From a virus (taxonomy: Duplodnaviria; Heunggongvirae; Uroviricota; Caudoviricetes): a stretch of 64,000 bases of DNA. A program made the position numbers and the translations under genes. The stretch lies in the IMG/VR virus record IMGVR_UViG_2654587674_000003. The stretch is one strand, 5' to 3'. Shown piece by piece: positions 3,736-50,700 of this stretch; the first letter of the stretch is position 1, and each line of letters starts with the position of its first letter. The notes beneath the pieces were generated by a model. The model made no database searches and was not told where the DNA came from. It saw only the letters and a program-made list of their open reading frames with translations.

Positions 3736-3805
3736 AACAGATACCCGGTTACGGACCGGGTTCTGACCAGAGTCCACTTAATACGCACGCTAGTAAGGGC
3801 AAAAA

Positions 3806-4144
3806 ATGAAACAGGCAACCAGAAAACCGACGACCGTAGGTGATATCCTGCTGTACGAATACCTGGAGCCGTTAGAGCTGAAGATCAACGAGTTAGCAGA
3901 AATACTTCATGTTCATCGTAACACCGTAAGCGCTCTTGTTAATAACAATCGTAAGCTAACGATGGATATGGCATATCGCCTGGCAAAAGCATTCGATACT
4001 TCTGTAGATTTTTGGATTAATCTTCAGACCGCAGTAGATCTGTGGGAAGTCGAAAATGATATGCGCGTCCAGGAAGAGTTAAGTCGTATCAATACTGCTG
4101 AAAAATTTATTTCTCAGCGGAACCTGAATAAAAAAGCAGCCTGA
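3806..4144 (+). CDS. higA: HigA-family antitoxin (XRE-type HTH)
   Basis: 112-aa ORF with HTH LAEILHVHRNTVSALVNNNRKLTMDMAYRLAKAF; immediately downstream of higB. Confidence 0.7.
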   Translation: MKQATRKPTTVGDILLYEYLEPLELKINELAEILHVHRNTVSALVNNNRKLTMDMAYRLAKAFDTSVDFWINLQTAVDLWEVENDMRVQEELSRINTAEKFISQRNLNKKAA

Positions 4145-10511: not shown

Positions 10512-10696
10512 ATTGGCAGCCTCCTTTGACTAAGTTAAGGAGCTACCGCGTGAGGTTCCAATCTCAATGGCGGTAGCACTGACTGGGTTGGAACTACCGG
10601 CGTCAAAGGGAACCGGCCTGCCTTTCGGCAGCCCAGCCAGCACTACCATTGATCTCTGAGCTAAACGCTAAGTATGGCTGTGCGATGGCATGACAC

Positions 10697-10785
10697 AAAA
10701 AAAGACGCGTTCGGCGTCTGTGTCGCCTTTGACATTATCCGGGGTTCCAATCCCGGCACCCGTTTTTCTAAGGTGCCGTAGAAAT
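10697..10785 (-). ncRNA. candidate c4-like antisense regulatory RNA of cassette 1
   Basis: minus-strand promoter-like TTGCGC-N18-TATATT near 10793..10826, hairpin whose loop carries GGTTCCAATC, then hairpin plus U-run terminator (10697..10718); same 10-mer and a near-complement lie in the icd leader. Confidence 0.3.
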
Positions 10786-34018: not shown

Positions 34019-34411
34019 CTACCAGCGAGACAAACGAACAACATGTTTCACTTTTGCGATCCACTGTCCGCGATAACTATTGATTACGGCCTGTGCCAGC
34101 TTCAAATTGGCTTCAAAATCAGCCTTACTACCATCAGACTCCACCAGCATTCCTCCATCTATTTCTGGTAAACATAGATAATCCTGCTCAACCTGCAGCG
34201 GCATTGATGGCTCTCTGAATGGGGTTACTTGCTCTGCTTTCCAGCGAAATCTAACCCTTATCCCCCTGGTGGTCATTACTAGATAGCCTGTTATAGTGCT
34301 TTTATGGCCCACATCAGTACGCGTGGCATTGCATGACACGATCTTACAGTTAGCGATAGACCACTCCATATTGGTGGCCTGTTGAGTGCTTAATTTGGTA
34401 GTCCCGTACAT
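34019..34411 (-). CDS. hypothetical protein
   Basis: 130-aa ORF. Confidence 0.4.
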   Translation of the reverse strand: MYGTTKLSTQQATNMEWSIANCKIVSCNATRTDVGHKSTITGYLVMTTRGIRVRFRWKAEQVTPFREPSMPLQVEQDYLCLPEIDGGMLVESDGSKADFEANLKLAQAVINSYRGQWIAKVKHVVRLSRW

Positions 34412-34986
34412 CAGAAAGCCTCCCAGTCAGTCGCGATAATATCCACACCAGTTGCAAACCAGTCTGTCTGCGCCTGTAAATCCCCATTCATCATTACCAG
34501 GCGAGGCATCACCATCACATCGCACCCTTCCACAATATCGAATGCCTCTTCCGGCAAGAATTCGAAGAGCTTTTCTTTGCTGCCAATACTGCCACGGAAC
34601 ATCGATATATAGCTCCCTTTGGGCCATGATGTCCGCCGGGCATCAAGCCCTTTCATCATCCAGTAAAAAGCCGAGGAAAAAGGGATATTCTTTTTGCCAA
34701 TGATTACATTATTCGCTTCTGTGTACTTCAGGAACTTAACTAACCTTACCATTGACTCGGATAACGCAACGTATGGCTCATGATTGATTGCTGACACGCT
34801 TACACCGTGCAATCCAACGCTTACCACTGTCATATCGCCGCTCTGTGCGGTTTCGATATTGACGCCTTTGCGAACTAATGAGGCGTAAAGTTCCTCTCGC
34901 TTTTGGGTCCAGCGTTCCCGCTTCCCTATGAAGTCACTCAAAATGAGATCTTCTTCTGCATATGCGTTATCGTTCGCCATTAACAT
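34411..34986 (-). CDS. hypothetical protein
   Basis: 191-aa ORF. Confidence 0.4.
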   Translation of the reverse strand: MLMANDNAYAEEDLILSDFIGKRERWTQKREELYASLVRKGVNIETAQSGDMTVVSVGLHGVSVSAINHEPYVALSESMVRLVKFLKYTEANNVIIGKKNIPFSSAFYWMMKGLDARRTSWPKGSYISMFRGSIGSKEKLFEFLPEEAFDIVEGCDVMVMPRLVMMNGDLQAQTDWFATGVDIIATDWEAF

Positions 34987-35190
34987 AACGTCTCCTTTTT
35001 ACACGCGCGACCATCTCTCGGTTAAACCGATAGAGATGTCGAAACTTCGTATTAATTAAGGGTTACAGCCTGAGCGGCTATATGATGAATTGAAAGGAGT
35101 TGTGGCGGTGGTGCCTCCACCTGCCAGGTCAGCCACGCCCGGCGACGACACTTATCAGAACCTCAATGAATGAAAATGGCTTCGTCACGA

Positions 35191-35260
35191 GCGCATAGCC
35201 GCAATTACCACAACGGAAACGGCGCTCGCGTTAATTAAACGCCTTTTCCTGTTGTGCGCC
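35191..35260. repeat. hairpin repeat family, copy A
   Basis: gcgcatagccgcaattaccacaacggaaacggcg...cgccttttcctgttgtg; stem covaries with other copies. Confidence 0.45.
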
Positions 35261-35440
35261 GTACTCTTCCGGCTGTCACACCGAATCGCCAGGATGGTGA
35301 GTCCTCGGTCCGACGATATGAACGGGGCTTGCACATTCCGGCTACCTGGTTTGTTGCCTGAGCTAGGGGAAAAGGTAACCCCTTTAACGTCACCAGACCG
35401 CTAACGACGCATGTGCCAGACGCCGTGTTACAACCAAATA

Positions 35441-35516
35441 TGGTGGCCCCTACCGGACTTGAACCGGTGACCGTGCGATTATGAGTCGCCAGCTCTAACC
35501 ACTGAGCTAAGGGGCC
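35441..35516 (-). tRNA. tRNA-Ile (anticodon CAU; Ile2/lysidine type)
   Basis: GGCCCCTTAGCTCAGTGGTTAGAGC...CTCATAA...GGTTCAAGTCC...GGGGCCACCA; near-identical to E. coli ileX as I recall it. Confidence 0.85.
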
Positions 35517-35525
35517 AATTAGTTT

Positions 35526-35639
35526 TTATTTTCGACGCCTGAGATTCTTCGCTACTTGTTCTACTCCGTATACGATCACAAGCAGAAATAGCAAAGACCA
35601 TCCAGGGTTCTTATCAATATACGTCCAAAAATCCATCAT
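35526..35639 (-). CDS. small hydrophobic peptide
   Basis: 37-aa ORF MMDFWTYIDKNPGWSLLFLLVIVYGV..., ATGA-coupled to upstream small ORF. Confidence 0.2.
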   Translation of the reverse strand: MMDFWTYIDKNPGWSLLFLLVIVYGVEQVAKNLRRRK

Positions 35640-35800
35640 GAGTTCCTGAACGCAGCTTTAATAATCGGCAATAGCAATACCACAGCTACTGAAACCAGTG
35701 CCCCATCAGCCAACACCGACATCACTTTGCTGGTGAAATCCACCAGCACGGACAAAACGAGAAAACCAATGGCGCACGCAATACGCGCCTTGCCAATCAT
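35636..35800 (-). CDS. small membrane peptide
   Basis: 54-aa ORF MIGKARIACAIGFLVLSVLVDF..., start overlaps the TerB-like stop (TAATG). Confidence 0.25.
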   Translation of the reverse strand: MIGKARIACAIGFLVLSVLVDFTSKVMSVLADGALVSVAVVLLLPIIKAAFRNS

Positions 35801-36234
35801 TACAGATAATCTTCCACACGAAGGCCCAAACGACGGCCTACTTCTTCCAGTACTTTGTGTTCTGCTGGCTCGATTTCACCGTCCGCTTCTGCAATCGTCA
35901 GCATGTTAACGAATACTTCTTCCGCTTCTTTTGGATCATTTTTGATATCTTCAATTTCGCGAAGGATATTCATGCGACCAACACGGAAACCAGCTTCCAG
36001 TTGCTCAGTAAAACGGGTGATTGTTGCGGTAATTTCGTTGCCAAAATGACTTAAGCGAGGATTAGAGCGGACAAGCTGATCAAGTTTCGCTGTTTCTTCC
36101 TTTTCGATTTCACCATCTGCGGCAGACACCAACAAACAGCCACCGATAATGGCCTCCATCAGATCGCGATTCTCAACCCTTTTCAGCTCTACTTTTGCTG
36201 AAGCGACTTTCTTACCGAAAAATTTACCGAACAT
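35800..36234 (-). CDS. TerB-family protein (TciA-like)
   Basis: 144 aa; duplicated AADGEIEKEE / AEADGEIEPAEH motifs typical of TerB. Confidence 0.6.
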   Translation of the reverse strand: MFGKFFGKKVASAKVELKRVENRDLMEAIIGGCLLVSAADGEIEKEETAKLDQLVRSNPRLSHFGNEITATITRFTEQLEAGFRVGRMNILREIEDIKNDPKEAEEVFVNMLTIAEADGEIEPAEHKVLEEVGRRLGLRVEDYL

Positions 36235-36370
36235 TGGTTATCCCTCAATAAACATGACGTATTTATTAGGTTGCGGTGCCTGGTGCCTCCAGGTGACGTT
36301 AACCAGTTAACAATTAACGCCGGGATGTTTGACTTAACCACTAAGGAGGATTGTTTTAACTGTTCCGCGT

Positions 36371-36405
36371 GCGCATAGCCGCATTCACCGCAATGGTAAG
36401 AGCAC
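36371..36405. repeat. hairpin repeat family, copy B (5' motif only)
   Basis: gcgcatagccgcattcaccgcaatggtaagagcac. Confidence 0.35.
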
Positions 36406-36501
36406 TTGGCTGGCTGGGCGGCGATGACGCCTGTACGCATTTGGTGATCCGGTTCTGCTTCCGGCATTCGCTTAATTAGCCAAATACTCTTAACGTTGCA
36501 C

Positions 36502-36588
36502 TGGCGGAGAGTAATGGAATCGAACCATCATCGCTTGCGCAATGGGACGGTTTTCAAGACCGTTTGAGCACCATGCTCCCTACTCTCC
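36502..36588 (-). tRNA. tRNA-Ser (anticodon UGA)
   Basis: minus-strand GGAGAGT...anticodon loop CTTGAAA, long variable arm, GGTTCGATTCC T-loop, ACTCTCC-G-CCA. Confidence 0.75.
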
Positions 36589-36666
36589 AGTGATTGTGAT
36601 GGTCGGTGCTGAACTCCGACACAGGGTTGTAGCAAGCCCCGCAAAGCGCGCACTACTGTAGTTGCG

Positions 36667-36786
36667 GCACATCAGCCTGTGCATTCACCACAATGTTGAG
36701 AACACTGGTTGTCACGCTGCAACGCAACATTTATTCGTAGATTGGGATATGACCCCGTTACGCCAGTGTTCTCAACGTTGTAGTGC
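36667..36786. repeat. hairpin repeat family, copy C
   Basis: gcacatcagcctgtgcattcaccacaatgttgagaacactgg ... ccagtgttctcaacgttg (17/18 complementary). Confidence 0.45.
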
Positions 36787-36910
36787 CGGTTACGGTTCCG
36801 GCCAGGCCTCTTCCTCAACGGGGTGTTCTCCATACGGACTACCGTTTATTGGTCGTTCCTGCGGTTTATGTTGTGAAGCCAGATGCTTATCTTCTGGTTG
36901 CTTCAAAGAG

Positions 36911-36989
36911 CTGCACTTCATCACAACGGTAAGAGCACTCGATGCATTTAAGCCAAGCCCCATAAGGGAGAATGCCCTTACCTGTTGTG
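36911..36989. repeat. hairpin repeat family, copy D
   Basis: ctgcacttcatcacaacggtaagagc ... gcccttacctgttgtg. Confidence 0.45.
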
Positions 36990-37094
36990 TTGTGATGACC
37001 GGTGCTGATCTCCGGCTTGCGGTTATTTCAGACTCTCACGGGCGTTTAATTGCCCCGCCGAACAGCTCTTTTCCGCAATAGCTGCAATGTCTTT

Positions 37095-37202
37095 CGCGCA
37101 TCAGCCTGCGCATTCATCACAACGGTAAGGGTACTTCGTAGGGATTCGAACCCTCTGCCAAGCTCGGCGATCTCCGACGTCGCAAAATACCCTTACCTGT
37201 TG
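37095..37202. repeat. hairpin repeat family, copy E, with embedded tRNA-like T-arm
   Basis: gcgcatcagcctgcgcattcatcacaacggtaagggta ... tacccttacctgttgtg; interior carries GAGGGTTCGAATCCCT on minus strand but no D or anticodon arm. Confidence 0.45.
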
Positions 37203-37205
37203 TGC

Positions 37206-37281
37206 TGGTGCCGATTAACGGACTCGAACCGCTGACATCCTGCTTACAAGGCAGGCGCTCTACCAACTGAGCTAAACCGGC
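37206..37281 (-). tRNA. tRNA-Thr (anticodon UGU)
   Basis: GCCGGTTTAGCTCAGTTGGTAGAGC...CTTGTAA...GGTTCGAGTCC...ATCGGCACCA. Confidence 0.8.
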
Positions 37282-37283
37282 AT

Positions 37284-37359
37284 TGGCGATGGTGGATGGA
37301 TTTGAACCATCGACCCGTTGATTAACAGTCAACCGCTCTAACCGCTGAGCTACACCATC
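37284..37359 (-). tRNA. tRNA-Asn (anticodon GUU)
   Basis: GATGGTGTAGCTCAGCGGTTAGAGC...CTGTTAA...GGTTCAAATCC...CACCATCGCCA; 2 nt upstream of tRNA-Thr. Confidence 0.8.
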
Positions 37360-37559
37360 ACTTGCCGGGTACGTCTCCGGCGAGGGCTTCCACCTCCGTA
37401 TGCTTTTCGGCGCACCGCGCCCTGGGTGCAATTCGGTAACAGGGGATGCACAACCCTGGCTTCCAGCGTGATTAGCGCCTTCAGCATGACGGGATATACC
37501 CGTAGTAGGATGTTATCCCAGAAAGCCATTAACCAATGGCTGTTACGCGGGAGGGACGT

Positions 37560-37636
37560 AACAGGTAAGGGCGCTGACCAGAAAGACCTGACCCTTCTCA
37601 TTCATCTGGTTAATCACACCAGCGCCCTTGCCTGTT
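37560..37636. repeat. hairpin repeat family, copy F
   Basis: aacaggtaagggcgctg-N43-cagcgcccttgcctgtt. Confidence 0.4.
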
Positions 37637-38575
37637 ATGCCTCCCCGTTCCCTAATACACAGACGGGGACACTCTGCGGTCGATTTTTTGACGGGGGACG
37701 ACTCATACCCCGTGGCGTCAGGCTTCTTAGGCCGCTACCATCATCAGATCATCGTTTGCATTTACTTTAATGGTCGGGTTCTAAACCGCCGCAAAGTCGC
37801 TAACCATGACGAAAACCCTAAAAAAGCCCACCCGAAGATGGGCAAATACGCTACATCTCACACAAGAAAGAAGCCGACTGCCTGAGCTGGATTCACTTTC
37901 AAATGCCCGCTGAAAGGGATCACAAGTCGGCTTCTTTCTTGATGCGGCACTCTCTCCGCCCGTCACCGCTCTGTCTCGGTTGTCGCGTTTGCCACGCCAG
38001 CCGTAACGAGGTTTAAAGTCTTTGCACGTTTCCATCACTCGACTGCCGTCTGTGGCTGTTCGTTGCAGCGGGGGTGCCTCCCCCTGGGGATATCCCCGGC
38101 CTTACCCCATTCTTTCAAGACACAATGCAAGGCCACATCCGCATAGGTGCATTACCGCAACATTAAGGAGACTCAGGGCAAAAGGTAACCGCCACAAAAA
38201 TCCCTATGCCTCCTTAATGTTGAAGATGTGCATTGATGATTAGATGCAGCATGTACCGTTACTCTCTGCCGGACCATCATCAATGAACACCTTAAAAAGA
38301 CCTTCCGTGGCTCAACATGTATTGTCGTTTACTCCGCAAAGTGCTCTCTCTGAAACCACTTTCCGCACTAAACCTGTTGAACTTTGGTCTGCTCGGTGCC
38401 AAAGCGTGCTCTTGGTTTACTATACTTTTCTAACACTTTAATTTGTTAATTGCTGGTGGGCATACAATAACCAATAAGTGACTATCAAGCCCAGCAAGCG
38501 AAACGTGGGTACCGCCCACCAGCAAGGAAAATTCTATGTTAAGTCATCTTCACAATCAATACATTCAAATTGTGA

Positions 38576-50426: not shown

Positions 50427-50583
50427 AGTTACGGCCTCATTCGTAGGTTTAACAACCTGCGCCCCGCTGCTAAACGGGTGGCAGGACGTGACGGGGTTAG
50501 CAGACTGGCACGAATGAAACCAGCAGGCCGAAGCCTCCCCATCACGCCCCACCATAATTCGGGCGTAACGTGGTTTTACGGAC

Positions 50584-50700
50584 ACAAAAATACCGCAATA
50601 TCGGATATCTGCGGTTGTCCGCATTCGTATTCAGGCTGCTAAACCCGGTCGCAGAATTTGCTACGACGACATGAATATAAGCCTGAAAACATGGAAGATC
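50584..50700 (-). ncRNA. candidate c4-like antisense RNA of cassette 2
   Basis: conserved gacacaaaaa plus hairpin terminator (50584..50615) as in cassette 1; loop-candidate GCTGCTAAAC repeated in icd leader (50467..50476) with partner gttagcag. Confidence 0.25.

Follow-up and report, generated by a model that had tools for sequence, protein, structure and literature searches.

Long covarying hairpins and an STnc100-like domain in the untranslated early leader of a D6/P1-like phage-plasmid

The hairpin locus

We analysed a 64,000 nt stretch of viral DNA (IMG/VR record IMGVR_UViG_2654587674_000003, Caudoviricetes), referred to here as the window; positions are those of the window unless another source is named. 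Between 35209 and 38222 its minus strand, which was read and folded, carries seven long hairpins interspersed with four tRNA genes. Judged by sequence and predicted structure, these hairpins would most likely punctuate long untranslated transcripts. All genes of the region are situated on the same strand, namely the four tRNA genes and the genes for TerB, a DUF3927 protein and a Tad2-like protein (Table 1). The region shares 98% identity with Escherichia phage D6 and matches E. coli plasmids of ~92 kb at 100%; in this D6/P1-like phage-plasmid the hairpin locus corresponds to the ban operon leader of P1. In P1 this operon consists of the C1-repressed promoter Pban followed by a "dicF-like" RNA, tRNA-Asn, tRNA-Thr, tciA/B/C, tRNA-Ile and ban. 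No coding sequence is annotated from 38594 to 36234, leaving ~2.3 kb of untranslated RNA before terB. The hairpins lie in long untranslated stretches of a repressor-controlled early operon.

In a preliminary description of the window six of these elements had been listed, each as a motif of about 30 nt followed by a hairpin. All six are present, and a seventh (E1 at 38156-38222) had been missed. All seven are long interrupted hairpins with z scores of -4.3 to -6.8 against dinucleotide shuffles, and in five of them the minus strand gives a more stable fold than the plus strand. The motif had been read on the wrong strand. On the minus strand, which is the sense strand, it is a 3' tail that comes after the hairpin and reads GUUGUGRUGAAU followed by a 5-bp hairpin; the 30-nt motif is the reverse complement of this tail. 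At up to 3 mismatches the tail motif CCGTTGTGGTGAATGCGC occurs four times in the window where 0.06 occurrences are expected, and the 5' arm CACAACAGGTAAGRGCA five times where 0.22 are expected, all of them within 35190-37640.

The tail is not common to all of the listed elements. It is well preserved only on E3, E5, E6 and E7, degenerate on E4 and divergent on E1, and E2 (near 37560) has none. Since E2 is nearly palindromic, its orientation was assigned from its P1 counterpart, which reads CACAACAGGUAAGGGCGCUG...CAGCGUCCUUUCCUGUUGCG. The longest stem among the window hairpins, with 23 bp, is that of E5. The fold of E4 took in 9 extra nucleotides at the 3' side. At the position of E6, P1 has a canonical hairpin. 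A copy of E3 that is 87.5% identical was found in Enterobacter phage BUCT554, and Klebsiella phage K751 shares the arms of E3 around a different interior.

Table 1. Features of the hairpin locus in the order of transcription (hairpins E1-E7, hairpin A; downstream domains B1 and B3-B7, domain B)
Feature	Position	Strand	Description
Hairpin A, E1	38156-38222	-	stem CAACAUUAAGGAG/CUCCUUAAUGUUG; inverted repeat I4; -31.1 kcal/mol, z -5.75
Domain B, B1	38062..38161	-	GUUGCGGUAAU, small hairpin, GGGGG-AGGCA-CCCCC, closing strand GCUGCAAC
Perfect 17-bp hairpin	37863-37941	-	followed by the terminator; 37820-37945 is the counterpart of the P1 "dicF-like region"
Intrinsic terminator GCCCAUCUUCGGGUGGGCUUUUUU	37820-37843	-	in the operon leader, upstream of the tRNAs
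Hairpin A, E2	37550-37646	-	inverted repeat I1; fold z -5.27; no tail, no domain B
tRNA-Asn(GTT)	37284..37359	-	ARAGORN; Rfam tRNA 74.5 bits
tRNA-Thr(TGT)	37206..37281	-	ARAGORN, Rfam; CCA end 2-3 nt before E3
Hairpin A, E3	37118-37204	-	-40.3 kcal/mol, z -6.14; T-arm-like interior AGGG-UUCGAAU-CCCU
Domain B, B3	36989..37123	-	GUUGUGAUGAAU, GCGCA-GGCUGA-UGCGC, variable insert, GCCGG-AGAUCAGCA-CCGGU, CAUCACAAC
Hairpin A, E4	36922-36989	-	-33.6 kcal/mol, z -4.76
Domain B, B4	36870..36927	-	short 58-nt form; degenerate small hairpin, CCAGA-AGAUAAGCA-UCUGG, CUUCACAAC
Small hairpin GCCGG-AACCGUAA-CCGGC	36785..36802	-	read from sequence; directly before the 5' arm of E5
Hairpin A, E5	36689-36783	-	inverted repeat I2, 91% complementary; -41.1 kcal/mol, z -6.76
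Domain B, B5	36593..36694	-	fold; closing strand ends 4 nt before tRNA-Ser
tRNA-Ser(TGA)	36502..36588	-	ARAGORN; RefSeq annotation of the identical plasmid; CCA end 2-3 nt before E6
Hairpin A, E6	36389-36499	-	-40.4 kcal/mol, z -4.27; lower stem imperfect
Domain B, B6	36270..36394	-	AGGCA-loop type; fold; Rfam STnc100 match
TerB gene	35800-36234	-	Pfam; 5' leader is domain B copy B6
tRNA, anticodon CAT	35441..35516	-	ARAGORN: tRNA-Met; homologue in P1 and RefSeq: tRNA-Ile2
Hairpin A, E7	35209-35256	-	shortest, 48 nt; -21.8 kcal/mol, z -5.07
Domain B, B7	35099..35214	-	GGUGG-AGGCA-CCACC, then CCACAAC; fold; repeats D6, D7, D14
Tad2-like gene	34411-34986	-	Pfam; domain B copy B7 in the leader

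Covariation and strand of hairpin A

The hairpins, which we call hairpin A, share one layout: CACAAC-A-GGUAAGAGCAUUG, a variable interior of 25-110 nt, then CAGUGCUCUUUCC-GUUGUG. The stems comprise 19-24 bp; a bulged A and a U·U mismatch are conserved in them. Compensatory changes in the stems had been reported in the preliminary description and taken as a sign of selection on RNA structure, and both statements were borne out. In the RNAalifold consensus of the seven window copies, built from arm-only constructs, 15 of 23 pairs are changed on both sides in at least one copy. For a larger set, 75 distinct arm constructs from unrelated phages were chosen via the tail rather than the stem and aligned without gaps. 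In this set 90.4% of the stem cells pair, compared with 36-57% when the partners are slid against each other, and again both sides are changed in 15 of the 23 pairs; none of 500 shuffles attained any of the five measures used.

The same set gives the strand. In the 5'-arm variants CAUAAC, CGCAAC, CGUAAC, UGCAAC and UACAAC the pairing with GUUGUG is kept via G·U, and the U·G in CAUUG/CAGUG is retained in 56 of the 75 copies. On the opposite strand these G·U and U·G pairs are A·C mismatches; such strand-specific pairs therefore argue that the RNA in sense orientation is selected. In agreement with this, among the 120 viral loci listed every tRNA within 1.5 kb of the motif (44 of 44) is co-oriented with it, and on either side of the element the longest reading frame runs in the same direction in 49 of 59 contexts. 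The hairpins are structures of the sense-strand RNA, here from the minus strand, which also carries the tRNAs, terB and the Tad2-like gene.

We also considered integron attC sites and rejected them: CACAAC/GTTGTG deviates from RYYYAAC/GTTRRRY at one position per box. As to a function as folded single-stranded DNA, the one-strand G·U pairs together with the co-orientation with transcription make RNA the more probable form. No integrase is annotated in the neighbourhoods compared; the window itself was not searched for intI.

Protein coding on the plus strand, with the repeats as coding repeats, is suggested by the P1 record AF234172, which places Upl and Plp (L002 3660-4229) over the counterpart of E3-E5, and by a 139 amino acid open reading frame at 36662-37081. 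PGAP, the prokaryotic genome annotation pipeline, calls no coding sequence there in the identical plasmid, a Pfam search gave no match, a 196-nt indel between P1 and the window falls inside the reading frame and is not a multiple of 3, and the same blocks occur in many noncoding contexts. We find this explanation scarcely credible; P1 upl and plp are probably mis-annotated structured RNA and not genes.

Hairpin interiors and tRNAs

One copy had been said to enclose a canonical T-arm, and the hairpins had been tentatively described as tRNA-derived. The T-arm AGGG-TTCGAAT-CCCT is indeed present inside E3, but the place is not recognised as a tRNA by ARAGORN or by the Rfam tRNA model, and the only tRNAs called are the four true ones. 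When hairpin interiors were delimited by an explicit arm search, a T-arm-like hairpin was found in 13 of 98 distinct interiors, ~27 times the rate in shuffled sequences (0.5%), and the description as tRNA-derived does not hold in general. The only match to the Rfam family YrlA (RF02553), with 25.6 bits against a gathering score of 69, spans the genuine tRNAs at 37222-37339 and not a hairpin, and was rejected.

The hairpins might nevertheless be decayed tRNA genes, or tRNA mimics that act as decoys for tRNA-targeting defence nucleases. Besides the excess of T-arms, this would fit a cloverleaf-like interior without D-arm in one locus (L022) and the tRNAs and Tad2-like anti-defence gene nearby. 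Yet 85 of the 98 interiors have no T-arm, neither the tRNA nor the YrlA model matches, and the conserved, covarying long stem has no counterpart in tRNA, which makes such an origin highly improbable.

Domain B and its kinship with STnc100

The 3' arm of hairpin A continues into GUUGUGGUGAAU and a small hairpin, and these open a closed domain of several helices, domain B. The composite thus has three constant blocks, C1 (CACAAC-A-GGUAAGAGCAUUG), C2 (CAGUGCUCUUUCC-GUUGUGGUGAAU-GCGCAGGCUGAUGCGC) and C3 (GCCGG-AGAUCAGCA-CCGGC-CACCACAAC), separated by the variable hairpin interior V1 and a variable insert V2. Domain B comprises the tail part of C2, V2 and C3 and is closed by pairing of GUUGUGGUG with CACCACAAC. 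A search directed at this helix found a perfect 9-nt complement of GUUGUGGUG (CACCACAAC or a covarying variant) 40-280 nt downstream of 110 of 164 tails. The complement is nearly always preceded by GCCGG-AGAUCAGCA-CCGGC or CCGGG-AGGCA-CCCGG, and the part in between is highly variable. In the small hairpin of the tail all five pairs are changed on both sides.

The minimum-energy folds of B1 and B3-B7 all show the core architecture with the closing helix. In B1 the 5' end is closed with the 3' end and the AGGCA-loop hairpin is kept; direct repeats D6 and D14 fall here. The fold of B3 pairs GUUGUGAUG with CAUCACAAC, and its 27-nt 3' block is matched exactly. The ends of the short B4 are closed as well, with a z of only -0.73, and a 58-nt counterpart exists in Salmonella phage Sasha (L010). 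The small hairpin at 36785..36802 is of the kind that ends domain B.

GUUGUG has two alternative partners, the upstream CACAAC at the base of hairpin A and the downstream CACCACAAC that closes domain B. The median energy difference between these pairings, taken over 70 composites, is 3.2 kcal/mol; the minimum-energy fold closes domain B in 48 and the base of hairpin A in 22.

It had been said that the elements could not be placed in a known family. This holds for hairpin A, which matches no Rfam family; a literature search for the constant sequences as words also gave no paper describing it. It does not hold for the adjoining motif, with which an STnc100-like domain begins. Domain B represents the core of Rfam STnc100 (RF02076), a functionally orphan family of which it is a divergent relative. 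The best window score, 40.1 bits (E 1.6e-6) for 36272-36392 on the minus strand, covers only model positions 31-147 and stays below the gathering score of 47. The remaining window copies gave no match to the model at E values up to 10, and Rfam misses the main AGAUCAGCA subtype in other loci. As a control, canonical STnc100 from phage 933W scored 207.7 bits. Its layout is the same, closed by the helix GCAUGGUG/CACCAUGC; it has its own terminator, and there is no hairpin A upstream. It lies at 3778-4037 of the 933W locus (L157), 75 nt after stx2B, with AsxR/AgvB immediately next to it on the opposite strand.

Shared with STnc100 are the closing helix (here GUUGUGGUG/CACCACAAC), GGUGAAU, the 5-bp hairpin, the variable middle and the AGGCA-loop hairpin abutting the closing strand, and also the setting in intergenic regions of enterobacterial phages near tRNAs and accessory genes. 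Three differences were noted. Most members found here have the 9-nt AGAUCAGCA loop instead of AGGCA; the window copies lack a Rho-independent terminator of their own (model positions ~165-200) and run into a tRNA, the next hairpin or an open reading frame; and hairpin A, which is outside the Rfam model, precedes the copies here.

In EHEC lysogens STnc100 copies are transcribed, including the 11 of EDL933, one of them seen on a Northern blot (PMC5331693), and STnc100 has been located 75 nt downstream of stx2 (PMC12370729). PasD aligns with STnc100, its variants have distinct target sets in RNA interaction by ligation and sequencing (RIL-seq), and PasA, a neighbouring prophage small RNA (sRNA), is cut out of a longer transcript (bioRxiv 10.64898/2026.05.13.724894). 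None of these three papers assigns a function.

This kinship raises the alternative that the elements are trans-acting base-pairing sRNAs of the STnc100/PasD type, V1 and V2 being target-specific seeds and the constant parts scaffold and chaperone sites. Constant ends around a hypervariable middle resemble a scaffold with changeable seeds; moreover, domain B is the STnc100 core, STnc100 copies are expressed in lysogens (PMC5331693) and the PasD variants differ in their targets. We consider this alternative rather unlikely, as the window copies run on without a terminator, no promoter was recognised before internal copies, and the interiors of hairpin A are mostly buried in structure.

Position relative to tRNAs, terminators and promoters

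The arms of hairpin A do not enclose tRNAs: none of the 44 nearby tRNAs is inside hairpin A or domain B. The tRNA genes precede hairpin A or start ~4-9 nt beyond domain B, and E3 and E6 begin 2-3 nt past the CCA ends of tRNA-Thr and tRNA-Ser, respectively. By strict criteria hairpin A is present in 102 of 132 distinct tail contexts, and most of the remaining 30 are hairpins with a one-base mismatch or chance matches to the short pattern.

In a strict scan hairpin A follows the T-run of a terminator by 6-10 nt in 9 of 80 contexts (1.7% in the control), and many other copies are preceded by a small hairpin of the type that ends domain B. Downstream of domain B a terminator-like hairpin was found in 13 of 62 contexts by the strict scan (control 6.4%); more than 20 further contexts, missed by the scan, have a long conserved hairpin GGCGGUGGCAG...CUGACCACCGCC followed by U5. 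This hairpin, or GGCGGUACCAG...CUGGUACCGC with U5, lies 40-70 nt downstream of domain B and is followed by another hairpin A. Prophage loci with one or the other form include L047, L048, L120, L122, L130, L147, L012 and L038.

Nearly all true copies of domain B have hairpin A in front; the exception is a family of lambdoid prophages (L063, L038 and others). At their PL promoter domain B begins 2-5 nt after the start predicted from TTGACA-18-TACATT, and hairpin A is lacking. In these prophages domain B is located between a cI-like gene and yfdP; Q is annotated and N is not. Silvania confinis (L145) has, in place of the 5' base of hairpin A, a strong sigma-70-like promoter, TTGACC-17-TATATT, from which transcription would begin within the 5' arm. 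For internal copies no preceding promoter was recognised. Within the constant blocks no sigma-70-like site was noticed, although no systematic scan was made; the PL and L145 promoters are upstream of the element. The CPS-53 prophage of E. coli K-12 has kept the yfdP operon and lost the leader element, and K-12 data sets are therefore unusable for it.

A function in the control of transcription termination has to be considered at this point. Domain B, with or without hairpin A, could act in cis and let host RNA polymerase pass terminators or resist Rho, like HK022 put or rrn/nut. Such control would be needed because the leaders are long, untranslated and contain terminators: in the window B1 is upstream of the intrinsic terminator that precedes the tRNAs, ~2.3 kb of RNA is untranslated before terB, and terminator-like hairpins follow domain B more often than in the control. 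In the SfV/CPS-53-like lambdoid prophages without N, domain B is at the 5' end of the PL transcript, as putL is in HK022 (PMC9378689). The extreme conservation of C2/C3 across unrelated phages of one host order would fit a conserved host partner.

Several observations speak against it. HK022 put has no sequence similarity to the elements; blastn-short of 100 elements against the HK022 immunity region yielded chance 13-16-mers only. The put site comprises ~70 nt with two stems, whereas domain B comprises 58-250 nt with a long-range closing helix and occurs in several copies per operon. P1 has no B1 upstream of the same terminator. The canonical STnc100 after stx2 is part of a Q-antiterminated late operon and ends at its own terminator, as a terminated sRNA would. 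As to rrn/nut, the boxA-like CAGUGCUCUUU in the 3' arm is replaced by GGCAGCUUUUC, GUGUUCUUCCC and GUGUCAUUUCC in covarying copies and is therefore not a conserved single-stranded boxA. On balance control of termination appears possible, though unlikely.

Mimicry of 16S rRNA, considered because some downstream sequences resembled pieces of 16S, was rejected as well. Blastn-short of all elements against the rrnB operon gave a single match, over 29 nt, between the helix-11 region and the variable insert of a few loci, and the constant blocks did not match the operon including the rrn leader. The loci concerned are L047, L054, L062 and L130, whose domain B insert is ~90% identical to this region (GGUGGGGUAAUGGCUCACCAUGGCGACGA) over the 29 nt.

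Distribution and mosaicism

The composite occurs widely among temperate phages of Enterobacterales and also in some virulent ones. With E3-E5 as query, a distant blastn search matched 124 phage records of very different kinds, among them P1-like, lambdoid and Stx2 phages, BUCT554 (Uetakevirus), K751 (Ackermannviridae) and Sashavirus; the matches fall in noncoding gaps with quite different gene neighbourhoods. The exact tail pattern is present in at least 120 IMG/VR contigs. A tail scan with one genome per species gave 20 matches, nearly all in Enterobacterales. At 95% identity or more, a domain of the B3 type is found in 845 of 5426 complete E. coli genomes (16%) and is never annotated.

Several observations bear on recombination. 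In P1 and two plasmids, L004 and L005, the 5' part of E3 is fused exactly in register to the 3' arm of E4, and L006 shows the reciprocal type. In L056 the E4 interior goes with another domain B. Between the P1-like window and lambdoid phages B3 and its insert are 96-98% identical, and both flanks differ. Near-identical plasmids differ in the tRNA genes of the array: in L003-L006, compared with 37206-37359 of the window, tRNA-Arg(TCT) takes the place of tRNA-Asn, tRNA-Tyr is added, and tRNA-Ser is found in some and missing in others. Whatever their primary role, the constant blocks act as recombination junctions.

One could suppose that this is their primary role, the conserved blocks being DNA-level linkers through which homologous recombination shuffles cassettes, like the promoter early stem-loop (PeSL) blocks of T4-type phages (PMC2839356). 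PeSL blocks are likewise conserved intergenic stem-loops at the borders of insertions, deletions and replacements, and the fusions, the E4 interior with another domain B, the near-identical B3 and the changing tRNA content would all follow. In contrast to PeSL, which contains an early promoter, none was recognised in hairpin A or domain B, and in hairpin A the RNA structure itself is under selection. Homology alone explains neither the compensatory changes and one-strand G·U pairs nor the strict co-orientation with transcription, and recombination at a conserved functional sequence is expected as a by-product. A primary role at the DNA level is improbable.

Repeats of other kinds offer a further comparison. 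The ERIC (enterobacterial repetitive intergenic consensus) and REP (repetitive extragenic palindromic) sequences of enterobacteria are transcribed, imperfectly palindromic, multicopy intergenic repeats. The composite is also imperfectly palindromic, intergenic and multicopy; it differs in sequence, in its confinement to phage and prophage DNA and in its two-domain design. We know of no transposase associated with it.

Processing of read-through transcripts

The reading we favour, tentatively and at a little under an even chance, is that the composite would act in cis and punctuate polycistronic read-through transcripts by endonucleolytic processing and stabilisation. Signals for processing of the tRNA transcript had been among the suggestions of the preliminary description. 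The units set apart would be tRNA, sRNA and accessory-gene cassettes. Hairpin A would be cut by a double-strand-specific endonuclease or by a single-strand-specific one acting next to it; RNase III would be the likeliest nuclease, RNase E at the single-stranded GUGAAU an alternative. The cut would part the upstream unit (the 3' end of a tRNA or a terminated RNA) from the downstream unit. It would also release GUUGUG from its 6-bp partner for the closure of domain B, and the closed domain may then provide a base-paired, nuclease-resistant 5' end for the next cassette, be it a tRNA, an sRNA or an accessory mRNA. Internal copies have hairpin A in the place that a promoter occupies at the PL copy, and the simplest reading would be that cleavage generates the 5' end of the unit that follows. 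In favour of processing are also the strand-specific selection on RNA structure, the co-orientation with tRNAs and reading frames, the boundary positions next to tRNAs and terminators, the competing pairings of GUUGUG, and the stable RNAs known from STnc100 and from PasA.

Hairpins processed by RNase III occur in phage early transcripts (T7 R0.3-R18.5, the lambda N-leader and sib). Like these signals, the hairpins are interrupted helices of ~20 bp between the genes of a polycistronic phage transcript, with a conserved lower stem and an asymmetric defect and otherwise free to vary. Hairpin A comprises about two helix turns with internal defects, as is typical of an RNase III signal, from which cleavage would be predicted. 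It differs in having variable interiors of 25-110 nt, a second structured domain downstream and cleavage that is so far a prediction, and in being common to unrelated phage groups instead of confined to one genome. For RNase E, the removal of a hairpin directly after the CCA of E. coli proline tRNAs is described in PMC5291269.

Some points weigh against processing. E2 has no tail and P1 has neither E1 nor B1, so the composite is not obligatory. A hairpin 2-3 nt past the CCA could hinder rather than help the maturation of the tRNA 3' end. The closing helix was found by searching for it, so that the 110 of 164 tails are a biased test, even if few would be expected by chance. Domain B gives a weak thermodynamic signal (z -0.7 to -2.6), and its last hairpin is conserved, not covarying, with 3 pairs doubly changed, a number reached by 19 of 500 shuffles. 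The conservation of C2/C3 across unrelated phages exceeds the needs of a nuclease site and points to a specific partner or recent exchange.

Such a partner is part of a variant in which processing is coupled to an RNA switch. The intact hairpin A would lock GUUGUG, and cleavage or a transcription start just downstream would free it for the closure of domain B; the invariant surfaces of C2/C3 would then bind a conserved host component, RNA polymerase or a Nus factor, and confer termination resistance on the long untranslated arrays of N-less lambdoid and P1-like phages. We regard this variant as distinctly unlikely. Among the alternatives to processing, control of termination is the main rival, followed by trans-acting sRNAs, recombination linkers, tRNA relics and plus-strand coding.

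Neighbouring features of the window

Behind tRNA-Ile, P1 has ban, coding for a DnaB-like helicase (L002 1042-2406), and the window plasmid has the Tad2-like anti-Thoeris gene (34411-34986), which is preceded by an STnc100-like leader. The annotation of the tRNA(CAT) at 35441-35516 as Ile2 implies decoding of Ile after lysidine modification. Directly 3' of this tRNA, 35330-35440 (minus strand) is by eye ~90% identical to part of the PL leader of the lambdoid phage mEp460 (L009 2770-2880), and is a further noncoding module common to P1-like and lambdoid phages. Elsewhere in the window two sets of C4 antisense RNA were found on the minus strand at 10566-10776 and 50474-50680, ~40 kb apart, one accompanied by isrK and the other by the c4 a1/b1 target family; the window therefore has two immI-like immunity modules.

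Implications

The composite of hairpin A and domain B ties the orphan sRNA family STnc100/PasD to a larger modular design with a plausible function in cis. A common unannotated element sits where phages keep tRNAs, toxin genes and anti-defence genes, and it explains the mosaic borders of accessory-gene cassettes. If the switch variant were true, antitermination by RNA alone, through a system unrelated to put, would be widespread. The composite also offers a defined, repeated RNA signal for studying how long untranslated tRNA arrays are expressed without Rho termination.

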